Positions 1 through 31,307 of a stretch of 64,000 nucleotides of DNA are shown in pieces; within the stretch, counting starts at the first letter, position 1, and each line of letters opens with the position of its first letter. The stretch lies in the UHGV virus genome UHGV-1430915, one strand, 5' to 3'. The stretch comes from a virus. Position numbers and translations under genes: made by a program. The notes under the pieces were generated by a model. It was not told the DNA's origin and ran no database searches. It was given only the letters and a program-made list of their open reading frames with translations.

Positions 1-195
1 AATCCAAAAAACGCAGTATTGAGTGTTCCCGCTGGCGGCGGCATAATACCGGATCTCAGCTACTTCGTGCAAATTATTGTCATCGTCCAGGCCCACCAGA
101 TTATAAGCCTTGTAAAATCCACGATCACGGCGGCAGTTCTTGACATCAGAAAAAGAAAAGTCCGCATTATCAAAATTAAAGGTAGTAGTTTTCAT
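1..195 (-). CDS. hypothetical protein (N-terminal part; gene runs past window start)
   Basis: Minus-strand frame open from ATG at 195-193 (MKTTTFNFDNADFSFSDVKNCRRDRGFYKAYNL...) to position 1 with no stop; SD-like GAGGATAAAATC directly upstream. Missing from the ORF track because it has no stop in the window. Confidence 0.35.
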   Translation of the reverse strand, partial: MKTTTFNFDNADFSFSDVKNCRRDRGFYKAYNLVGLDDDNNLHEVAEIRYYAAASGNTQYCVFWI

Positions 196-259
196 GATTT
201 TATCCTCTTAGTGTCTTTTGTGCTTTTAGTGTATTTGGTGTCGGACTATATGTCAATAC

Positions 260-457
260 TTATTTTTTATTAAACCAGTGGTTGATCTGGCCTTTTGTCA
301 GGGCGCAACGATTAAGCTGTTGCCGGGTATAGCTCTGACCGCGACGGAATTTATAAAGGCCTTGCCCGTTGTTGATGGTTACGTCCACCTGGCAAACCAT
401 TTGATCGGTGACGGCCTGGTGAGTGTTGCGACGTACTTTAATTCCGTAGGCGTTCAT
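260..457 (-). CDS. hypothetical small protein (65 aa)
   Basis: ORF track; ATG at 457 preceded by the same GAGGATAAAAATC SD context as the gene at 195. Confidence 0.4.
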   Translation of the reverse strand: MNAYGIKVRRNTHQAVTDQMVCQVDVTINNGQGLYKFRRGQSYTRQQLNRCALTKGQINHWFNKK

Positions 458-717
458 GATTTTTATCCTCTCTGTTAATTAGTGTGGTGTTGTTCACCTT
501 GCGAGGGTAAGAATAACAGAACTATCCGAGCTGTCAACCATTAGTTAGAATTATTTTTTGGGCAGAATTCTCCAGCAGCCGCCACTGCCAGGTTAACCAT
601 CATTTTTGTACCTCCTCTTCAGTTGTTGCCTACCCTATAGCATAGCCCTGCCAGGCTGGCCCCGCCAGGTTGCAACGGTTAGCGCATCAGGTTAGAATTT
701 TTTTTTTTTGAAAAGTG

Positions 718-746
718 TTGACAGCGGCCCCGCCAGGTGGCACAAT
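718..746 (+). promoter_or_regulatory. sigma70-like promoter, rightward (TTGACA-17-CACAAT) with upstream T12 UP-element-like tract
   Basis: TTGACA at 718-723, 17-nt GC-rich spacer, CACAAT at 741-746; T-run 698-709 lies where an UP element would sit. Confidence 0.45.
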
Positions 747-781
747 ATACCTATCGAAAGGACGGCAGGCACCGGTGACGG

Positions 782-840
782 GGGAGACAATCACCGGGGA
801 TGGGCGCTGCATAAAATGAGAACGGTTATCATTATCATTT
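782..840 (+). repeat. conserved leader unit copy 1 (GGGAGACAATCACCGGGG ... GAGAACGGTTATCATT)
   Basis: 18-mer GGGAGACAATCACCGGGG at 782-799 is identical to 916-933; a TTATCATT-containing tail follows in both copies. Confidence 0.6.
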
Positions 841-861
841 AAAAATTTATGCAAAAAATCC

Positions 862-892
862 TTGCTTTCTTTGTCCTGTGTGATACTATAAT
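862..892 (+). promoter_or_regulatory. sigma70-like promoter, rightward (TTGCTT-16-TACTATAAT)
   Basis: TTGCTT at 862-867; TACTAT at 884-889 overlapping a perfect TATAAT at 887-892; A-rich upstream. Confidence 0.45.
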
Positions 893-915
893 AACAAGCC
901 GGGGCAACAGGGGCC

Positions 916-972
916 GGGAGACAATCACCGGGGGTGCCCGTTATTCTGCAAACGAGAATGATTATCATTCAA
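916..972 (+). repeat. conserved leader unit copy 2
   Basis: Second copy of GGGAGACAATCACCGGGG (916-933) followed by GAGAATGATTATCATT; sits just downstream of the 862-892 promoter, as copy 1 sits downstream of the 718-746 promoter. Confidence 0.6.
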
Positions 973-1010
973 AATTCTAAATGAGAACTTTTCGCATTTC
1001 ATAAATTTAG

Positions 1011-1022
1011 TTAGCATGCTAA
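1011..1022. promoter_or_regulatory. perfect 12-bp palindrome TTAGCATGCTAA (candidate operator)
   Basis: Exact dyad symmetry read directly in the AT-rich non-coding region. Confidence 0.3.
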
Positions 1023-1090
1023 TTACCTACCGTGACAATTCTATATAAAATAATACCTCCTTAAATATTTCCATATACGAATTTTAAAAA

Positions 1091-1267
1091 TCCATTTCCG
1101 AAAACGAAAAATCGATTTCGTCCCCAAAAATTTCAGGTCGAGCTCCGGAACGATTTCCAGAAAATCTGATTCAGAAAACGAAAAACAGATCGAGTACTAA
1201 GAAATTTATCGAGAAAAATTTTCAGAAAATTCAATCTTTGAAACGAAAAACAGATCGAGTACTGAGA
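1091..1267. repeat. three tandem ~65-bp direct repeats (iteron-like)
   Basis: Core GAAAACGAAAAACAGATCGAGTACT at 1174-1198 and GAAACGAAAAACAGATCGAGTACT at 1240-1263 are near-identical, with similar upstream CAGAAAAT segments; a degenerate copy GAAAACGAAAAATCGATTTCGTCC lies at 1100-1123. Confidence 0.6.
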
Positions 1268-1421
1268 GAGATGTATCAAAACCTACTGAGAATAATGGGC
1301 TTATTGTTATAAAAGGTCAAAGGTAAGCTGGGAAAGTTCTGGTAGAAGGGTGAGGGTATGTGCGGAAAATCTGGAATAGTAACTTAAAGTACGGTGCGAA
1401 CGATAGAATGAGCAGCACATC

Positions 1422-1529
1422 TTATCGCGCCTGTCTTGAAAAATCCATTTTAGTTTTCGATCCATTTTCTGATTTTCTAAGAATTTTAAAATATCCGACT
1501 AGGTAAAATATCAAAAGGAGGAAATCCAT
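1422..1529 (-). CDS. candidate micro-ORF, 35-aa hydrophobic peptide (MDFLLLIFYLVGYFKILRKSENGSKTKMDFSRQAR)
   Basis: ATG at 1529-1527, 8 nt after a perfect SD AAGGAGGA (complement of 1538-1545); hydrophobic N-terminal stretch; below the ORF-track size cutoff. The SD can pair with codons 3-5 (TTCCTCCTT) in a hairpin. Confidence 0.3.
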   Translation of the reverse strand: MDFLLLIFYLVGYFKILRKSENGSKTKMDFSRQAR

Positions 1530-1549
1530 TTTAGAAATCCTCCTTATAC
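1513..1549 (-). terminator. hairpin (8-bp stem AAGGAGGA/UCCUCCUU) downstream of the leftward operon ending at 1575; doubles as an SD-sequestering structure
   Basis: Inverted repeat read on the minus strand with a U-rich 3' flank. Confidence 0.3.
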
Positions 1550-1574
1550 TTGATGTGCCAGGGATTTTCAAGTA

Positions 1575-1904
1575 TCAATTGTCTTTGTTTTTAGGCTTGT
1601 GCATACGTAGAGGTATGGTCTTTATAACATTCCATCTACCCAACCCTTCCCAGTTCCAATTGTGAGCGTGATACCCGGTTATGCATGCACTGCTGGCGTG
1701 ATCATAAGCATAAGAGAACGCTATGCGAACCAGGTGGGGCCAGTCCCTCCACGGCTGTGGACCGTAAGCCTTTCTCCAACACCGACATAAACTAATTGTC
1801 TCAAGAATAGGTAGAATAACAAATCCATATACCGCCACCAAAATGGTCAGAGCAATGATTGTCAGGAATACATACCCTGCAGTTGAAATAATGATCTCTG
1901 TCAT
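1575..1904 (-). CDS. hypothetical membrane protein (109 aa)
   Basis: ORF track; N-terminal hydrophobic stretch IIISTAGYVFLTIIALTILVAVYGFVILPI; ATGA start/stop overlap with the upstream gene. Confidence 0.5.
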   Translation of the reverse strand: MTEIIISTAGYVFLTIIALTILVAVYGFVILPILETISLCRCWRKAYGPQPWRDWPHLVRIAFSYAYDHASSACITGYHAHNWNWEGLGRWNVIKTIPLRMHKPKNKDN

Positions 1905-2104
1905 TTGTCATCCCCTTTCTTACGGATATAGATGTGAGAGCCTGCTTGTACATAAATTTCCCGACCATCTTCTGCAAAGATGTGGAATATACGGTCGCCT
2001 TCGTATTCAATACGGGATATCTTCATAACGGTCTTCCCACCCGGAATGCGGATCTCATCACCAACAGCAATGTTCCATGCAGATTTAAGCTTAAACATCT
2101 GCAC
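1901..2104 (-). CDS. hypothetical protein (67 aa)
   Basis: ORF track; SD AGGAGGG upstream of ATG at 2104. Confidence 0.5.
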   Translation of the reverse strand: MQMFKLKSAWNIAVGDEIRIPGGKTVMKISRIEYEGDRIFHIFAEDGREIYVQAGSHIYIRKKGDDK

Positions 2105-2336
2105 CCTCCTTTGGGAGCTCTAACTCTGGCATAGCCATATACGCCACAACAGGGTTGTAATCAAAGTAGAAATGACCGTTAATTATCCCAGTTTTGTGGG
2201 CATAGTCACCAGATCCCGCAAGAACAATTTCGCAAACTCCGAAATCCACCTTGCCACTCTCATCTGCCATGGCTACAATATACTTTCCTAGAGGCATGTT
2301 TTTAACGCCGTCTACAAATGTCCACCCTTTGTTCAT
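2091..2336 (-). CDS. hypothetical protein (81 aa)
   Basis: ORF track; tightly packed in the leftward operon. Confidence 0.45.
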   Translation of the reverse strand: MNKGWTFVDGVKNMPLGKYIVAMADESGKVDFGVCEIVLAGSGDYAHKTGIINGHFYFDYNPVVAYMAMPELELPKEGADV

Positions 2337-2356
2337 ACTTTATCTCCTGCACTTTC

Positions 2357-2689
2357 TTAAGGTAACCAGTAAACAATTTCGCCTTTCAGTTCCATGTCGT
2401 TACCGACATAGATTTTCCAGCCATCTATTTTAGCCACTGCAGGAGTGAAGTCCGTAGAACCACTAACCTCTTTCCAAGTCCCGTAGTCAGGTTGCCAGAT
2501 ATAGAATCCACCTTCCTTGTCCCATGCTCCATATACCACATCGAGCAGGTTGCCCATTGCAACAATAGTAGGCCGTGGGAATAATACATCTACAGATGCG
2601 CCACAATTTCGGGTAGATTTTAAATTACAATCCCAAAAGATGTCTGCCAGTGTGGCGGCGATAGCTTTACGTCTTTCTAATGTTACCAT
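2357..2689 (-). CDS. hypothetical protein (110 aa)
   Basis: ORF track. Confidence 0.5.
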   Translation of the reverse strand: MVTLERRKAIAATLADIFWDCNLKSTRNCGASVDVLFPRPTIVAMGNLLDVVYGAWDKEGGFYIWQPDYGTWKEVSGSTDFTPAVAKIDGWKIYVGNDMELKGEIVYWLP

Positions 2690-2699
2690 GGTACGATAC

Positions 2700-2891
2700 T
2701 CACTTGTTGTTAAGAAGTTCTAAAACTTTCTGTTTTACTTTATCAATGTCTGTTGATTCAAAAACTGTGCGATATCCCCAACTTTGCCCATAGGAATGAC
2801 TGCAATCCCCGTAACACCATTGCTCAACTTGATAGTATTCAAGGAATGGGTGCTGTCTGACTATGATACCGTCTCGATTAAAAATTACCAT
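2700..2891 (-). CDS. hypothetical protein (63 aa)
   Basis: ORF track; consensus-like promoter immediately upstream (2923-2950). Confidence 0.45.
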   Translation of the reverse strand: MVIFNRDGIIVRQHPFLEYYQVEQWCYGDCSHSYGQSWGYRTVFESTDIDKVKQKVLELLNNK

Positions 2892-2922
2892 AATTTATCC
2901 CTCTCTGCTAGTCTATGTTTGT

Positions 2923-2950
2923 ATTATATACTGCAGTTTTCAGATGTCAA
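2923..2950 (-). promoter_or_regulatory. sigma70-like promoter, leftward (TTGACA-16-TATAAT)
   Basis: Complement of 2945-2950 is TTGACA and complement of 2923-2928 is TATAAT. Confidence 0.5.
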
Positions 2951-2954
2951 CCTT

Positions 2955-3149
2955 TTACAGGTTACTCCAGTATAATCGGCATTTGCATTTTGGGCAATGA
3001 GGTTCTTTTATGTAATAACCATCAGTCTTTGGAACACTTTTTGGTGCAGTTTTAAGATTGTACCGAGTAAAGCACCGGAAGCAGGTTACCTCTCCTACCT
3101 GTTGATCGTTTATCCACTCACCAGAGTAAAGCTCTTTCTTGTTTCTCAT
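2955..3149 (-). CDS. hypothetical zinc-ribbon protein (64 aa from MRNKKELYSGEW...)
   Basis: CxxC ... CPKCKC cysteine pairs; start moved to ATG at 3149 (SD GGGAGA upstream) so it does not overlap the gene ending at 3152. Confidence 0.45.
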   Translation of the reverse strand: MRNKKELYSGEWINDQQVGEVTCFRCFTRYNLKTAPKSVPKTDGYYIKEPHCPKCKCRLYWSNL

Positions 3150-30606: not shown

Positions 30607-30607
30607 T

Positions 30608-30841
30608 ATGGCGAAAATTCGTAAATTATCCAGCAATCAGGTTGTGAAAGACTTTGAATCTGGAGAGATTCTGTATGTTCGTGATGCAGATGACGAAGGT
30701 GAAGATCTTGTTATGCTAGTAGGACACGCTGAAGACGGATGCATCCAAGCCGTTTTTCTTGAAACAGCCATGGTGCACTGGATAGAGCTGGACCTGAAAG
30801 CACGAAAACCTAAAGCAGAAATCCTGATTTACGAAGATTAA
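30608..30841 (+). CDS. small protein, member 3 of the plus-strand paralog trio
   Basis: ORF track; FESGEILYVRDADDEGEDLVMLVG matches the family pattern. Confidence 0.45.
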   Translation: MAKIRKLSSNQVVKDFESGEILYVRDADDEGEDLVMLVGHAEDGCIQAVFLETAMVHWIELDLKARKPKAEILIYED

Positions 30842-30857
30842 CAAAAAGGAGAGAGCC

Positions 30858-31307
30858 GTGTTGAGCAAACGTGAATGCGACAGCATTAGCCTGAATTCTT
30901 ATAAGAAACAATGGTTTGGGGTGGAAGTTTGCCGACTGCGGCTAGGCTCCTACCTGAACTTCGTTTATTATGAGAGTGATAGTCGTATTGTTTCTTATGA
31001 AGTGTTCTACACCAAGAACACCTTCGAACTGCGCCGTAAAGTGGATGGTGGGAGAACTACCCCCCAGAATAATTGGGAAACTATCCTACCTACGGATGTT
31101 ATAGGAAGTCCCCTGAATGTATCTGAAGATGAAAATCTTATGGTTCATGCTATGATGGGACTTGACAGCTTAGAGCTGGCGATCTATGATATGTCCATCG
31201 AAGCAGTTAAGCTGGACTACATCGAAAACACTTTAGAGGAAGGTATCAAGAAGTTCCTCAGTGAGAAATTAAAAGACCACTTTCATAAGGAGCTATACCT
31301 GTTATGA
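30858..31307 (+). CDS. hypothetical protein (149 aa)
   Basis: ORF track. Confidence 0.5.
   Translation: MLSKRECDSISLNSYKKQWFGVEVCRLRLGSYLNFVYYESDSRIVSYEVFYTKNTFELRRKVDGGRTTPQNNWETILPTDVIGSPLNVSEDENLMVHAMMGLDSLELAIYDMSIEAVKLDYIENTLEEGIKKFLSEKLKDHFHKELYLL

Follow-up and report, generated by a model that had tools for sequence, protein, structure and literature searches.

Why would a virulent phage keep two rightward promoters facing DNA in which no gene can be recognized, when all of the genes around them run leftward? The question arises at positions 698-972 of the window, our term for the whole 64,000-nt stretch of UHGV virus genome UHGV-1430915 analyzed here as one strand, 5' to 3'. An earlier note on this DNA had described two promoter-leader units at these positions, each a sigma70-like promoter followed by a shared 18-mer and a TTATCATT-containing segment, and had proposed paired small RNAs, a regulatory leader, or a transcription-activated origin as candidate functions. 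In our analysis, positions 698-972 appear to be the front half of a ~1-kb non-coding, rightward-transcribed island that is insulated from the surrounding leftward early genes. Across many genera the order of elements is fixed: tandem host promoters are followed by a structured, G-rich leader, then by Fur operators, the AT-richest DNA, and iteron-like repeats. The reading that we tentatively prefer is one of tandem promoter-leader units, with holo-Fur as the gate on their transcription into AT-rich, iteron-bearing DNA that resembles an origin.

Rightward promoters in a leftward region

The DNA assigns the source phage to the rV5-like Vequintavirus, as window region 500-1600 shares 98% identity with Escherichia phage S127 BCL3 and 88% with rV5, and is matched by 122 phage records in total. 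In rV5 and S127, the genes around the island are small leftward early genes annotated as "hypothetical," and the leftward direction reported for the flanking genes in the window was confirmed. Once one doubtful open reading frame (ORF; 687-968) is discounted, positions from about 480 to 1575 form the largest ORF-poor stretch of the 64 kb. The absence of a plausible plus-strand ORF downstream of the promoters also held, the longest being 48 amino acids; all lack a ribosome-binding site, and no conserved ORF was found.

Both promoters, P1 and P2, are good candidates for recognition by sigma70, with hexamers separated by 16 to 18 nt and kept in relatives while the spacers vary. For P2 this is seen in an alignment of 15 relatives from at least five genera, and P1 is kept in Vequintavirus relatives. 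P2 was absent from the promoter scan list because its TTGCTT and TATAAT hexamers stand 19 nt apart; it appears to read better with the upstream -10 hexamer given in Table 1, in a register homologous to the conserved promoter of relatives. Between 2.5 and 22 kb, all 17 promoter-like sites with at least 10 of 12 consensus matches lie on the minus strand. P1 and P2 therefore form an isolated rightward pair among leftward early genes, the only strong plus-strand promoters within the first 22 kb. We think it very probable that both fire rightward.

Fur boxes downstream of the promoters

The TTATCATT-containing segments proved to be real repeats, at 814-833, 950-969, and 979-998, but they read as host Fur boxes, a DNA operator rather than a part of the RNA. 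The motif GAATGATTATCATTC is palindromic, and the phage boxes have as their consensus AATGAGAATSATTMTCATT, a Fur box in its 9-1-9 form. The Fur consensus published for Xanthomonas, AATGAgAATcATTctCATT, is identical (PMC1790865), and Fur boxes of A. baumannii resemble it (PMC3055841). Boxes in the window match 13 to 15 of the 16 positions of the 9-1-9 form AATGAnAATnATTnTCATT and 14 to 15 of the 19 positions of the classic consensus GATAATGATAATCATTATC (15 for the unit 1 box), on which the host sites at fhuA, fecI, fepB-entC, and fepD-entS score 14, 14, 15, and 16. The 16 nt at 950-965 are exactly those of the Fur box in the E. coli K-12 fhuA promoter. Matches of at least 13/16 occur four times in the window, all at 815-998 (0.58 expected), and the motif GAGAAYNNTTNTCATT is likewise confined to the island, with 4 matches versus 0.28 expected.

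A position matrix built from 50 phage boxes only, when scanned across 150 kb of E. coli K-12, returned fepA-fes, fepB-entC (two sites), fepD-entS, fhuA, fecI, and fecA as its top matches. The single outlier, at K-12 position 189,579 (L154 44580; 16.6 bits; AAATTGAGAATCATTCTGAATTT), lies between map and tff/rpsB, where we know of no Fur site. With the same matrix, the unit 1 box in the window scores 23.2 and 17.7 bits. It is made of two overlapping sites offset by 6 bp, the classical Fur-box construction. Counted from P1 it occupies +63 to +87, and 22 bp farther downstream lies the -35 hexamer of P2. The 29-bp spacing of the two boxes in unit 2 is identical in relatives. In sequence, the TTATCATT-containing boxes are strong Fur operators, and that they bind Fur is, in our judgment, highly likely.

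Similar boxes are present well beyond this phage group. The Fur-box 16-mer GAGAATGATTATCATT was found in more than 120 viral contigs (IMG/VR loci L013-L131), where its unspecified flanks are enriched for AAT-, and clusters of at least three Fur-like boxes occur in at least 30 of 119 unrelated viral loci. In two loci (L035 and L092), a (GAGAAT)n hexamer run leads into the Fur box of an IMG/VR contig, recalling the hexamer-repeat model of Fur binding. Exact DnaA boxes lie within 300 bp of Fur-like boxes 24 times in the 119 unrelated contigs, against 3.6 expected (6.7-fold), and seven of these loci have DnaA-box clusters within that distance. This enrichment lends weak independent support to an origin model.

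Leader stem-loops

The shared 18-mer, GGGAGACAATCACCGGGG, is exact at 782-799 and 916-933, as reported, and its 17-mer core has 2 matches in the 64 kb at up to three mismatches (0.10 expected). A distance of about 35 nt from each promoter had been claimed; this is right for P1, where it is 36 nt from the -10 hexamer, but the corresponding distance for P2 is 24 to 27 nt. The 18-mer is the top of a predicted ~50-nt leader stem-loop. The leader 1 fold has an energy of -18.8 kcal/mol (z-score, -1.6), and the apical hairpin of leader 2 (914-931) has one of -7.8 kcal/mol (z-score, -2.05). All leaders share an invariant core, AGACAAWCAC. Five variable nucleotides separate it from TGC, after which ATTCTGCAAA leads into box 1.

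A two-tier stem-loop is predicted for most of the 19 leader variants that were folded. Its outer helix pairs the 5' end of the transcript with the bases immediately preceding UCUG, and its apical helix shows the core in its loop. The loop is constant across leaders while the stem varies. Pairing in the 6-bp outer helix reaches 95.3% in a homology-anchored alignment of 18 leaders from outside Vequintavirus, compared with 24 to 64% when the partner columns are slid. Two pairs of the helix are changed on both sides (A-U/G-C/G.U), and one has G.U in 11 of the 18 leaders, which is compatible with the plus strand only. Covariation thus gives the fold moderate support; the outer helix of unit 2 in the window is short. 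The reading of these elements as promoter-leader units is backed by both parts, promoter hexamers and leader stem-loop, being kept across genera.

Paired small RNAs, one of the functions first proposed, are not supported, because neither unit is followed by a plus-strand terminator and no Rfam family matches. No plus-strand terminator-like site was found in positions 1-2500, so the arrangement of a small RNA gene, a promoter and an intrinsic terminator 50 to 300 nt apart, is lacking there; Rfam gave no match in window positions 1-3000 or in five related loci. Nor does the 18-mer core have a complementary target of at least 14/17 in the 64 kb. Mimicry of a host sequence by the leader was rejected, as the 18-mer has only 7 matches in 185,579 bacterial genomes, all in unrelated taxa and not beyond chance.

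Searches of IMG/VR with degenerate leader patterns returned mostly chance matches, leaving 8 real variants after filtering for a downstream Fur box. A 46.8-kb IMG/VR contig, 3300027123_000194 (L138, L141, L234), has four copies of a cassette that carries the leader core. Each copy consists of an upstream terminator, a -10 box (GATATAAT), a leader with GG(U/G)GGAGACAAWCACCGGGG, and a U-run, with the core ~10 nt after the -10-like box. No protein similarity to the window was found in the DNA compared, and the leader motif is therefore common to unrelated phages.

AT-rich DNA and iteron-like repeats

The promoters face the AT-richest DNA of the window. The lowest-GC segments of the 64 kb, which has a mean of 44%, are 997-1096 over 100 bp (24%), 941-1140 over 200 bp (29%), and 956-1255 over 300 bp (30%), and they begin 45 to 100 nt past the P2 start. 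Three iteron-like repeats of 47 to 64 nt follow (Table 1). They are imperfect, at 67 to 78% identity, and GATCGAGTACT recurs within them at 1188-1198 and 1253-1263. A homologous triplet with 67/74-bp spacing is found in phage Mydo, phiTE has six copies of GATCGAGACCC, and GATCGAGACC is present in an Aeromonas phage as well. The transcription-activated origin suggested in the earlier note fits this architecture of tandem promoters, AT-richest DNA, and iteron-like repeats.

Table 1. Features of the island and its edges (window positions)
Feature	Positions	Strand	Details
Promoter P1	718-746	+	TTGACA (718-723)-17-(TGg)CACAAT (741-746); 10/12 matches, TG extended -10; predicted start near A753
Promoter P2	862-892	+	TTGCTT (862-867)-16-TGaTACTAT (881-889), or TATAAT (887-892) with a 19-nt spacer; predicted start near A896
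Leader 1 stem-loop (predicted)	765-810	+	Outer helix GCAGGC/GC-CUGC, inner helix CCGGUGA/UCACCGG; holds 18-mer copy 1
Leader 2 stem-loop (predicted)	902-939	+	Apical hairpin 914-931, CCGGGA[GACAA]UC(A)CCGG; carries 18-mer copy 2
Fur box, unit 1	815-839		Two overlapping 19-mers offset by 6 bp (815-833, 821-839); 14/16 and 13/16 to AATGAnAATnATTnTCATT
Fur box 2a	951-969		AACGAGAATGATTATCATT; +56 to +74 from P2; 15/16 to the 9-1-9 consensus; 28.7 bits
Fur box 2b	980-998		AATGAGAACTTTTCGCATT; 29 bp from box 2a; 13/16; 23.3 bits
AT-richest DNA of the 64-kb window	941-1255		Candidate DNA-unwinding region
Palindrome	1011-1022		Perfect, TTAGCATGCTAA; within a block kept even in divergent contigs L144 and L078
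Three iteron-like units	1087-1267		1087-1133, 1148-1202, 1213-1267; spacing 65 and 74 bp
AAATCCATTT repeats	1441-1531		1441-1450 and 1522-1531, further copy at 1088-1097; kept in L144 and L078
GGCCCCGCCAGGT 13-mer, copy 1	658-670	+	Overlaps the -35 of a weak promoter-like site (670-698)
Leftward sigma70 promoter	510-537	-	TTGACA-16-TATTCT; 10/12 matches, TG extended -10; drives gene 260-457; left island edge
Leftward intrinsic terminator	1515-1545	-	Hairpin AAGGAGGA/TCCTCCTT, then UUUUGAUAUUUU on the minus strand; after gene 1575-1904; right island edge
ORF of 93 amino acids	687-968	-	Homologue of rV5 ORF198; judged not a gene

Conservation of the module

Absence of the units from close relatives, with no phenotype, would have counted against them in the view of the earlier note; about 260 phage genomes carry unit 2. 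A sensitive search with positions 690-1010 returned 260 phage records, and the module is found in phages of Escherichia, Klebsiella, Salmonella, Pectobacterium, Cronobacter, Serratia, Proteus, Enterobacter, and Aeromonas. It is present in all Vequintavirinae genera and in the Stephanstirmvirinae, and is partial in an Aeromonas phage. Unit 2 (~902-1001) is ~80% identical in Certrevirus (phiTE, CR3), Seunavirus (4MG, Salmonella phages), Mydovirus (Proteus and Klebsiella phages), and Serratia phage Kashira, and ~70% identical in the Stephanstirmvirinae (Phapecoctavirus, Justusliebigvirus); a 38-nt core is 92% identical in an Aeromonas Plateaulakevirus. Since the flanking genes vary between lineages, the non-coding module is better conserved than its neighbors.

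The two units are not equivalent. Unit 2 is ancestral and widely conserved, and unit 1 is a Vequintavirus-specific second copy of the leader plus box that stands in place of a different structured-RNA element found in other genera. The shared layout begins with an optional small rightward gene, promoter A, a highly conserved GC-rich ~100-nt element, and promoter B. It continues with a leader carrying GAGACAAWCACC and with 1 to ~8 boxes AAATGAGAATGATTCTCATTCAA exactly 29 bp apart, and ends in 3 to 6 iteron-like repeats ending GATCGAGA(A/C)CC, after which comes the next leftward gene. Seunavirus and Mydovirus have a third promoter, placed between the boxes and the iteron-like repeats. Vequintavirus lacks the promoter A element and has P1 and unit 1 instead. 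Among divergent Vequintavirus-like contigs, L078 has one unit, and L144 has two with the box kept only in the first.

In every genus other than Vequintavirus, this near-invariant element (GACGCCACCCCACGGCGAAAAGGCGGGGCUAAC...GGAAGGUGGAUCGCCGG; for example, L003 1320-1425 and L009 1305-1425) is driven by the first island promoter. It occurs in 233 phage records, and Rfam offers no match for it. Inspection by eye shows covariation in a hairpin (ACCAGG/CCUGGU versus GCCG/CGGC) and in a loop-to-downstream pairing (CCCC/GGGG versus CCAA/UUGG in a second copy carried by FKP3 and P7_Pc). The pattern suggests an H-type pseudoknot RNA.

A candidate Fur-gated origin and its rivals

According to the model that we favor, host RNA polymerase would start at the tandem sigma70 promoters, near 753 at P1 and near 896 at P2. 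Each transcript would open with a G-rich ~50-nt leader whose stem-loop presents the invariant AGACAAUCAC, and within 10 to 15 nt of the stem-loop the polymerase would meet high-affinity Fur boxes, of which unit 1 has one and unit 2 has two. Fur loaded with iron at +56 to +103 would sit between the promoters and the downstream DNA, a position from which it could gate transcription into 941-1255 and the iteron-like units at 1087-1267. The downstream part (950-1270) would be a lytic replication origin of the transcription-activated kind, in which transcription opens or primes the AT-rich region for a T7-gp4-like primase-helicase, and replication-linked transcription would respond to host iron status. 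Phage rV5 encodes a primase-helicase of this GP4d type, and its origin is unmapped (PMC3606486). We favor a P1/P2-primed, Fur-gated origin because the order of elements resembles that of the T7 and T4 transcription-activated origins and because of this primase-helicase. Fur binding, a Fur-dependent block or modulation of read-through, and the origin role of the downstream region are all things that we infer from sequence.

Several observations weigh against this model. The Fur boxes lie at +56 to +103 and do not overlap the -35 or -10 hexamers of P1 or P2, as they would in the usual repressor geometry, and a downstream roadblock of elongating polymerase would be a less common mode of action. 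The number of boxes varies from 1 to about 8 among relatives, and one relative has no box in its unit 2, which means that the stoichiometry need not be fixed. DnaA boxes are absent from the island, and no initiator gene is recognizable beside it; by Pfam and PHROGs, the neighboring genes are of unknown function or encode a NADAR domain or an HNH endonuclease, and they vary between lineages. The GC skew here merely tracks gene orientation (also PMC3606486). In the related phage Bas54, a different intergenic region of ~2 kb tolerates no transposon insertions (10.1101/2025.11.20.689424) and may be the main origin. Literature searches found no transcriptome for this phage group. The fold and covariance check proposed in the earlier note yielded the common two-tier fold and the paired outer helix described above, the latter being the sole countable signal and dependent on the homology-anchored alignment. 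RNAalifold found no consensus structure in an unguided leader alignment, the outer-helix shuffle control gave only 39/500, and single leader sequences fold no better than their shuffles (z-scores, -1.6 to +0.5).

One possible but doubtful alternative is that the island is a non-coding RNA locus, in which the leaders either are the product or act in cis as nut/put-like antitermination elements. In the first case, short RNAs would have 3' ends set by a Fur roadblock or by Rho; in the second, the elements would protect polymerase from Rho across the untranslated region. The conserved loop AGACAAWCAC would be the recognition site of a phage or host factor. The same element does follow two promoters here and four promoter-like sites in the unrelated viral contig, each copy there being flanked by a terminator upstream and a U-run downstream. 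Its loop is invariant while the stem varies, the G.U pairs indicate a plus-strand RNA, the GACAA pentaloop in the window is that of P22 boxB, and the first promoter of this island drives another RNA in other genera, one that is highly conserved and pseudoknot-like. However, the absence of an intrinsic terminator, of an Rfam match, and of a complementary target already noted tells against RNA products, and an antiterminator would have neither a boxA consensus nor downstream genes or terminators to act on. An RNA locus would also leave the Fur boxes, the AT-rich tract, and the iteron-like repeats unexplained.

The boxes themselves could be the point. As multicopy titration of Fur is the established principle of the FURTA assay, hundreds to thousands of amplified phage boxes might act as a decoy that derepresses host iron uptake for the iron enzymes of the phage, with the promoters incidental or serving to keep the sites accessible. 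The boxes equal bona fide host sites on the independent classic 19-mer consensus (their higher scores on the phage matrix are circular, since the same boxes helped to build it), and their number, from 1 to ~8 at a fixed 29-bp pitch, is as expected of dosage-type evolution; the clusters in unrelated viral contigs point the same way. We nevertheless regard a decoy as quite unlikely. With thousands of Fur molecules in a cell, three boxes on each genome may not suffice, one relative carries just one box, and the tight, conserved linkage of box 1 to the leader (ATTCTGCAAATGAG) suggests local regulation in cis, not a free-standing sponge. It is improbable, too, that the boxes merely resemble Fur boxes and are operators or iteron-like sites for a phage protein, whether an initiator or an early regulator. 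AT-rich palindromes are common as operators, and several genera have a small rightward gene just upstream, encoding either a DUF7170 protein or an 88-amino-acid protein that looks helix-turn-helix-like by eye, though it has no Pfam match. Yet the boxes stay the same where this gene changes from genus to genus, and also in Vequintavirus, which lacks it. The motif cross-recognizes the host Fur regulon with almost no false matches, it recurs in many unrelated phages of different hosts, as fits a conserved host factor better, and Fur is abundant and would occupy such sites anyway.

Two further readings place the signal on the minus strand. In the first, a leftward promoter, TTGAAT (971-966)-18-CAGAAT (948-943), whose spacer is filled by Fur box 2a in the classic geometry of a repressor, would produce antisense RNA over leader 2 under repression by Fur, in the manner of ColE1 RNA I/RNA II or RyhB. 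We consider this very improbable. Although TTTGCAGAAT and TTGAAT are kept beside box 1 in most genera and a second weak leftward match lies at 1002-974, the site has only 8/12 matches with an 18-nt spacer and no equivalent in unit 1, the G.U pairs of the leader would become C.A mismatches on the minus strand, and an extended Fur site could also explain the conserved bases. We give almost no credence to the remaining reading, in which the region encodes a 93-amino-acid ORF198 protein and the repeats are coding repeats. The frame is open over 79 to 98 amino acids in close relatives, and ORF 687-968 matches phrog_14993, a match that reflects the same ORF annotated in those relatives. It has no ribosome-binding site and no Pfam match, however, and in other lineages the open frame crosses the shared DNA motifs in a different reading frame. 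The S127 and PGAP annotations omit it, and its conserved blocks coincide with promoter hexamers and Fur boxes. We treat it as spurious on these sequence grounds.

Other observations at the locus

Both edges of the island carry leftward signals. The promoter at 537-510 is annotated in rV5 as P195B. The hairpin at 1515-1545 (z-score, -3.4) is read as a leftward terminator because a U-run comes next on the minus strand, and its stem is preserved in L144 through a compensatory change. Just inside the left edge, at 606/607, the window lacks ~100 to 190 bp with most of a small leftward gene (rV5 ORF197) that is present in S127, rV5, and L132; a remnant of 20 codons survives at 603-541 with a strong ribosome-binding site.

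Two exact copies of the 13-mer GGCCCCGCCAGGT, each with a Dcm site, are located at 658-670 and, inside the P1 spacer, at 726-738. In phage phiWec189, the P1 -35 hexamer has been lost through a deletion between the two copies. The weak promoter-like site at 670-698 (TTGCAA-17-TAGAAT) is followed by a T13 run (698-710) directly 3' of its -10-like TAGAAT. The length of the run is different in every close relative. Slippage or reiterative transcription may take place there, or the tract may simply be hypervariable.

The phiWec189 record (LC739538.1; L399/L400) has the same 148 nt at both ends, a stretch that extends from the Fur box of unit 1 to that of unit 2. A genome terminus or pac site in the island was considered and rejected, as the record ends there in an untrimmed 148-nt assembly overlap, explained by the repeated Fur boxes, and the position of the island in other records is arbitrary. 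Homology to plasmid origins was likewise rejected, the sole PLSDB match being an rV5-like genome deposited as a plasmid, with no replicon type. The 137,565-bp circular "plasmid" pRHB39-C03_2 of an E. coli cattle isolate (CP057073.1; L163), which has no replicon type, is an rV5-like genome with the island and could represent a carrier state or a co-assembled phage. About 16 "Campylobacter phage" records (MG0656xx; host, C. jejuni) are 96 to 98% identical to E. coli Vequintavirus across the island and are probably mislabeled or contaminant genomes.

Genes for tRNA were also rejected, as ARAGORN finds none in the window or at the homologous locus of a Klebsiella phage. In the record of Klebsiella phage vB_Kpn_K45PH128C2 (L004), tRNA Lys, Ile, and Met are annotated over the island on the minus strand (878-1573); they are likely annotation artifacts, because ARAGORN does not detect them. 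Mimicry of a type III antitoxin by a pseudo-ToxI of ToxI-like 36-nt repeats, as in phiTE, was excluded by position, the phiTE escape locus being at 106.7 kb and the island homologue at 39.6 kb. Elsewhere in the window, the second-largest ORF-free stretch (30607-31303, ~700 bp) is free of Fur-like boxes; its rV5 counterpart is probably the divergent promoter region that separates genes 10 and 11.

Implications

Literature searches found no published description of this island, its RNAs, a replication origin, or Fur boxes in these or other virulent phages. The kinds of component are known (sigma70 promoters, Fur operators, and iteron-like repeats), and it is their combination and conservation in lytic phages that is undescribed. 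A broader proposition strikes us as rather unlikely at present: that arrays of host Fur operators are found in the non-coding control or origin DNA of virulent phages from several families, which would sense or manipulate host iron status. If it is true, origin firing or early non-coding transcription could be coupled to Fe-Fur, and amplifying phage DNA could also titrate Fur off the chromosome, derepress iron uptake, and feed the phage ribonucleotide reductase; the co-location of Fur-like boxes and DnaA-box clusters in unrelated viral contigs would make Fur a previously unrecognized host factor at phage replication origins.

Phages related to rV5 and phi92 are widely used in therapy and biocontrol cocktails, and their origins and early regulation are unmapped. 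A Fur-gated module would wire infection to host iron status. As iron differs sharply between laboratory broth and gut, urine, or serum, therapeutic efficacy could be affected. The island also provides a concrete candidate origin, useful for engineering and for origin-based vectors, along with two uncharacterized conserved RNA elements and the suggestion that Fur boxes are a recurrent feature of phage control regions.

Comparison with known systems

In sequence, the operators are those of Fur-regulated enterobacterial promoters such as fhuA, fecI/fecA, fepA-fes, and iucA, with the same 19-bp/9-1-9 form, the same 6-bp-shifted overlaps, the 16-nt identity to the fhuA box, and scores at or above those of host sites. 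In contrast to host Fur promoters, the island places them in a virulent phage, in non-coding DNA, and downstream of the start (+56 to +103) instead of over the -35 and -10 hexamers, in arrays of fixed 29-bp pitch with no iron gene attached.

The leaders invite comparison with nutL-nutR of lambda and P22 and with putL-putR of HK022. There, as here, an identical short element follows each of two early promoters, at 25 to 36 nt in the island, and the island hairpin has a purine-rich loop like that of nut, with the pentaloop shared with P22 boxB. Unlike nut and put, the island copies stand in tandem on one transcription path and not on divergent operons. They come without boxA, a known N-like gene, or downstream genes and terminators, and in most genera the loop is 7 to 10 nt. 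The rrn operons of E. coli have tandem P1-P2 promoters with an antitermination leader. The island shares with them its tandem promoters, an untranslated transcript that would need protection from Rho, and a hairpin followed by the U-rich conserved UGCCCGUUAUUCUG, but this is only 7/9 to boxA, and no rRNA or tRNA lies downstream.

Like the iteron origins (lambda ori, P1 oriR, and plasmid iterons), the island has 3 to 6 direct repeats adjoining an AT-rich tract. It differs from them in lacking DnaA boxes and a recognizable initiator gene next to it, and its repeats are long and imperfect. The primary origin of T7 consists of the tandem promoters phi1.1A/1.1B followed by an AT-rich tract, and T4 oriF and oriG each combine a promoter with an unwinding element and use an R-loop primer. 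Compared with these, the island uses host sigma70 promoters, it has Fur boxes and iteron-like repeats that are absent in T7 and T4, and its role as an origin is that of a candidate. The likenesses are nonetheless several: two tandem promoters ~140 bp apart face the AT-richest DNA of the region, the phage group, like T7, encodes a gp4-type primase-helicase (in rV5), and the leader is G-rich on the non-template strand, which would favor R-loops as at the T4 origins.

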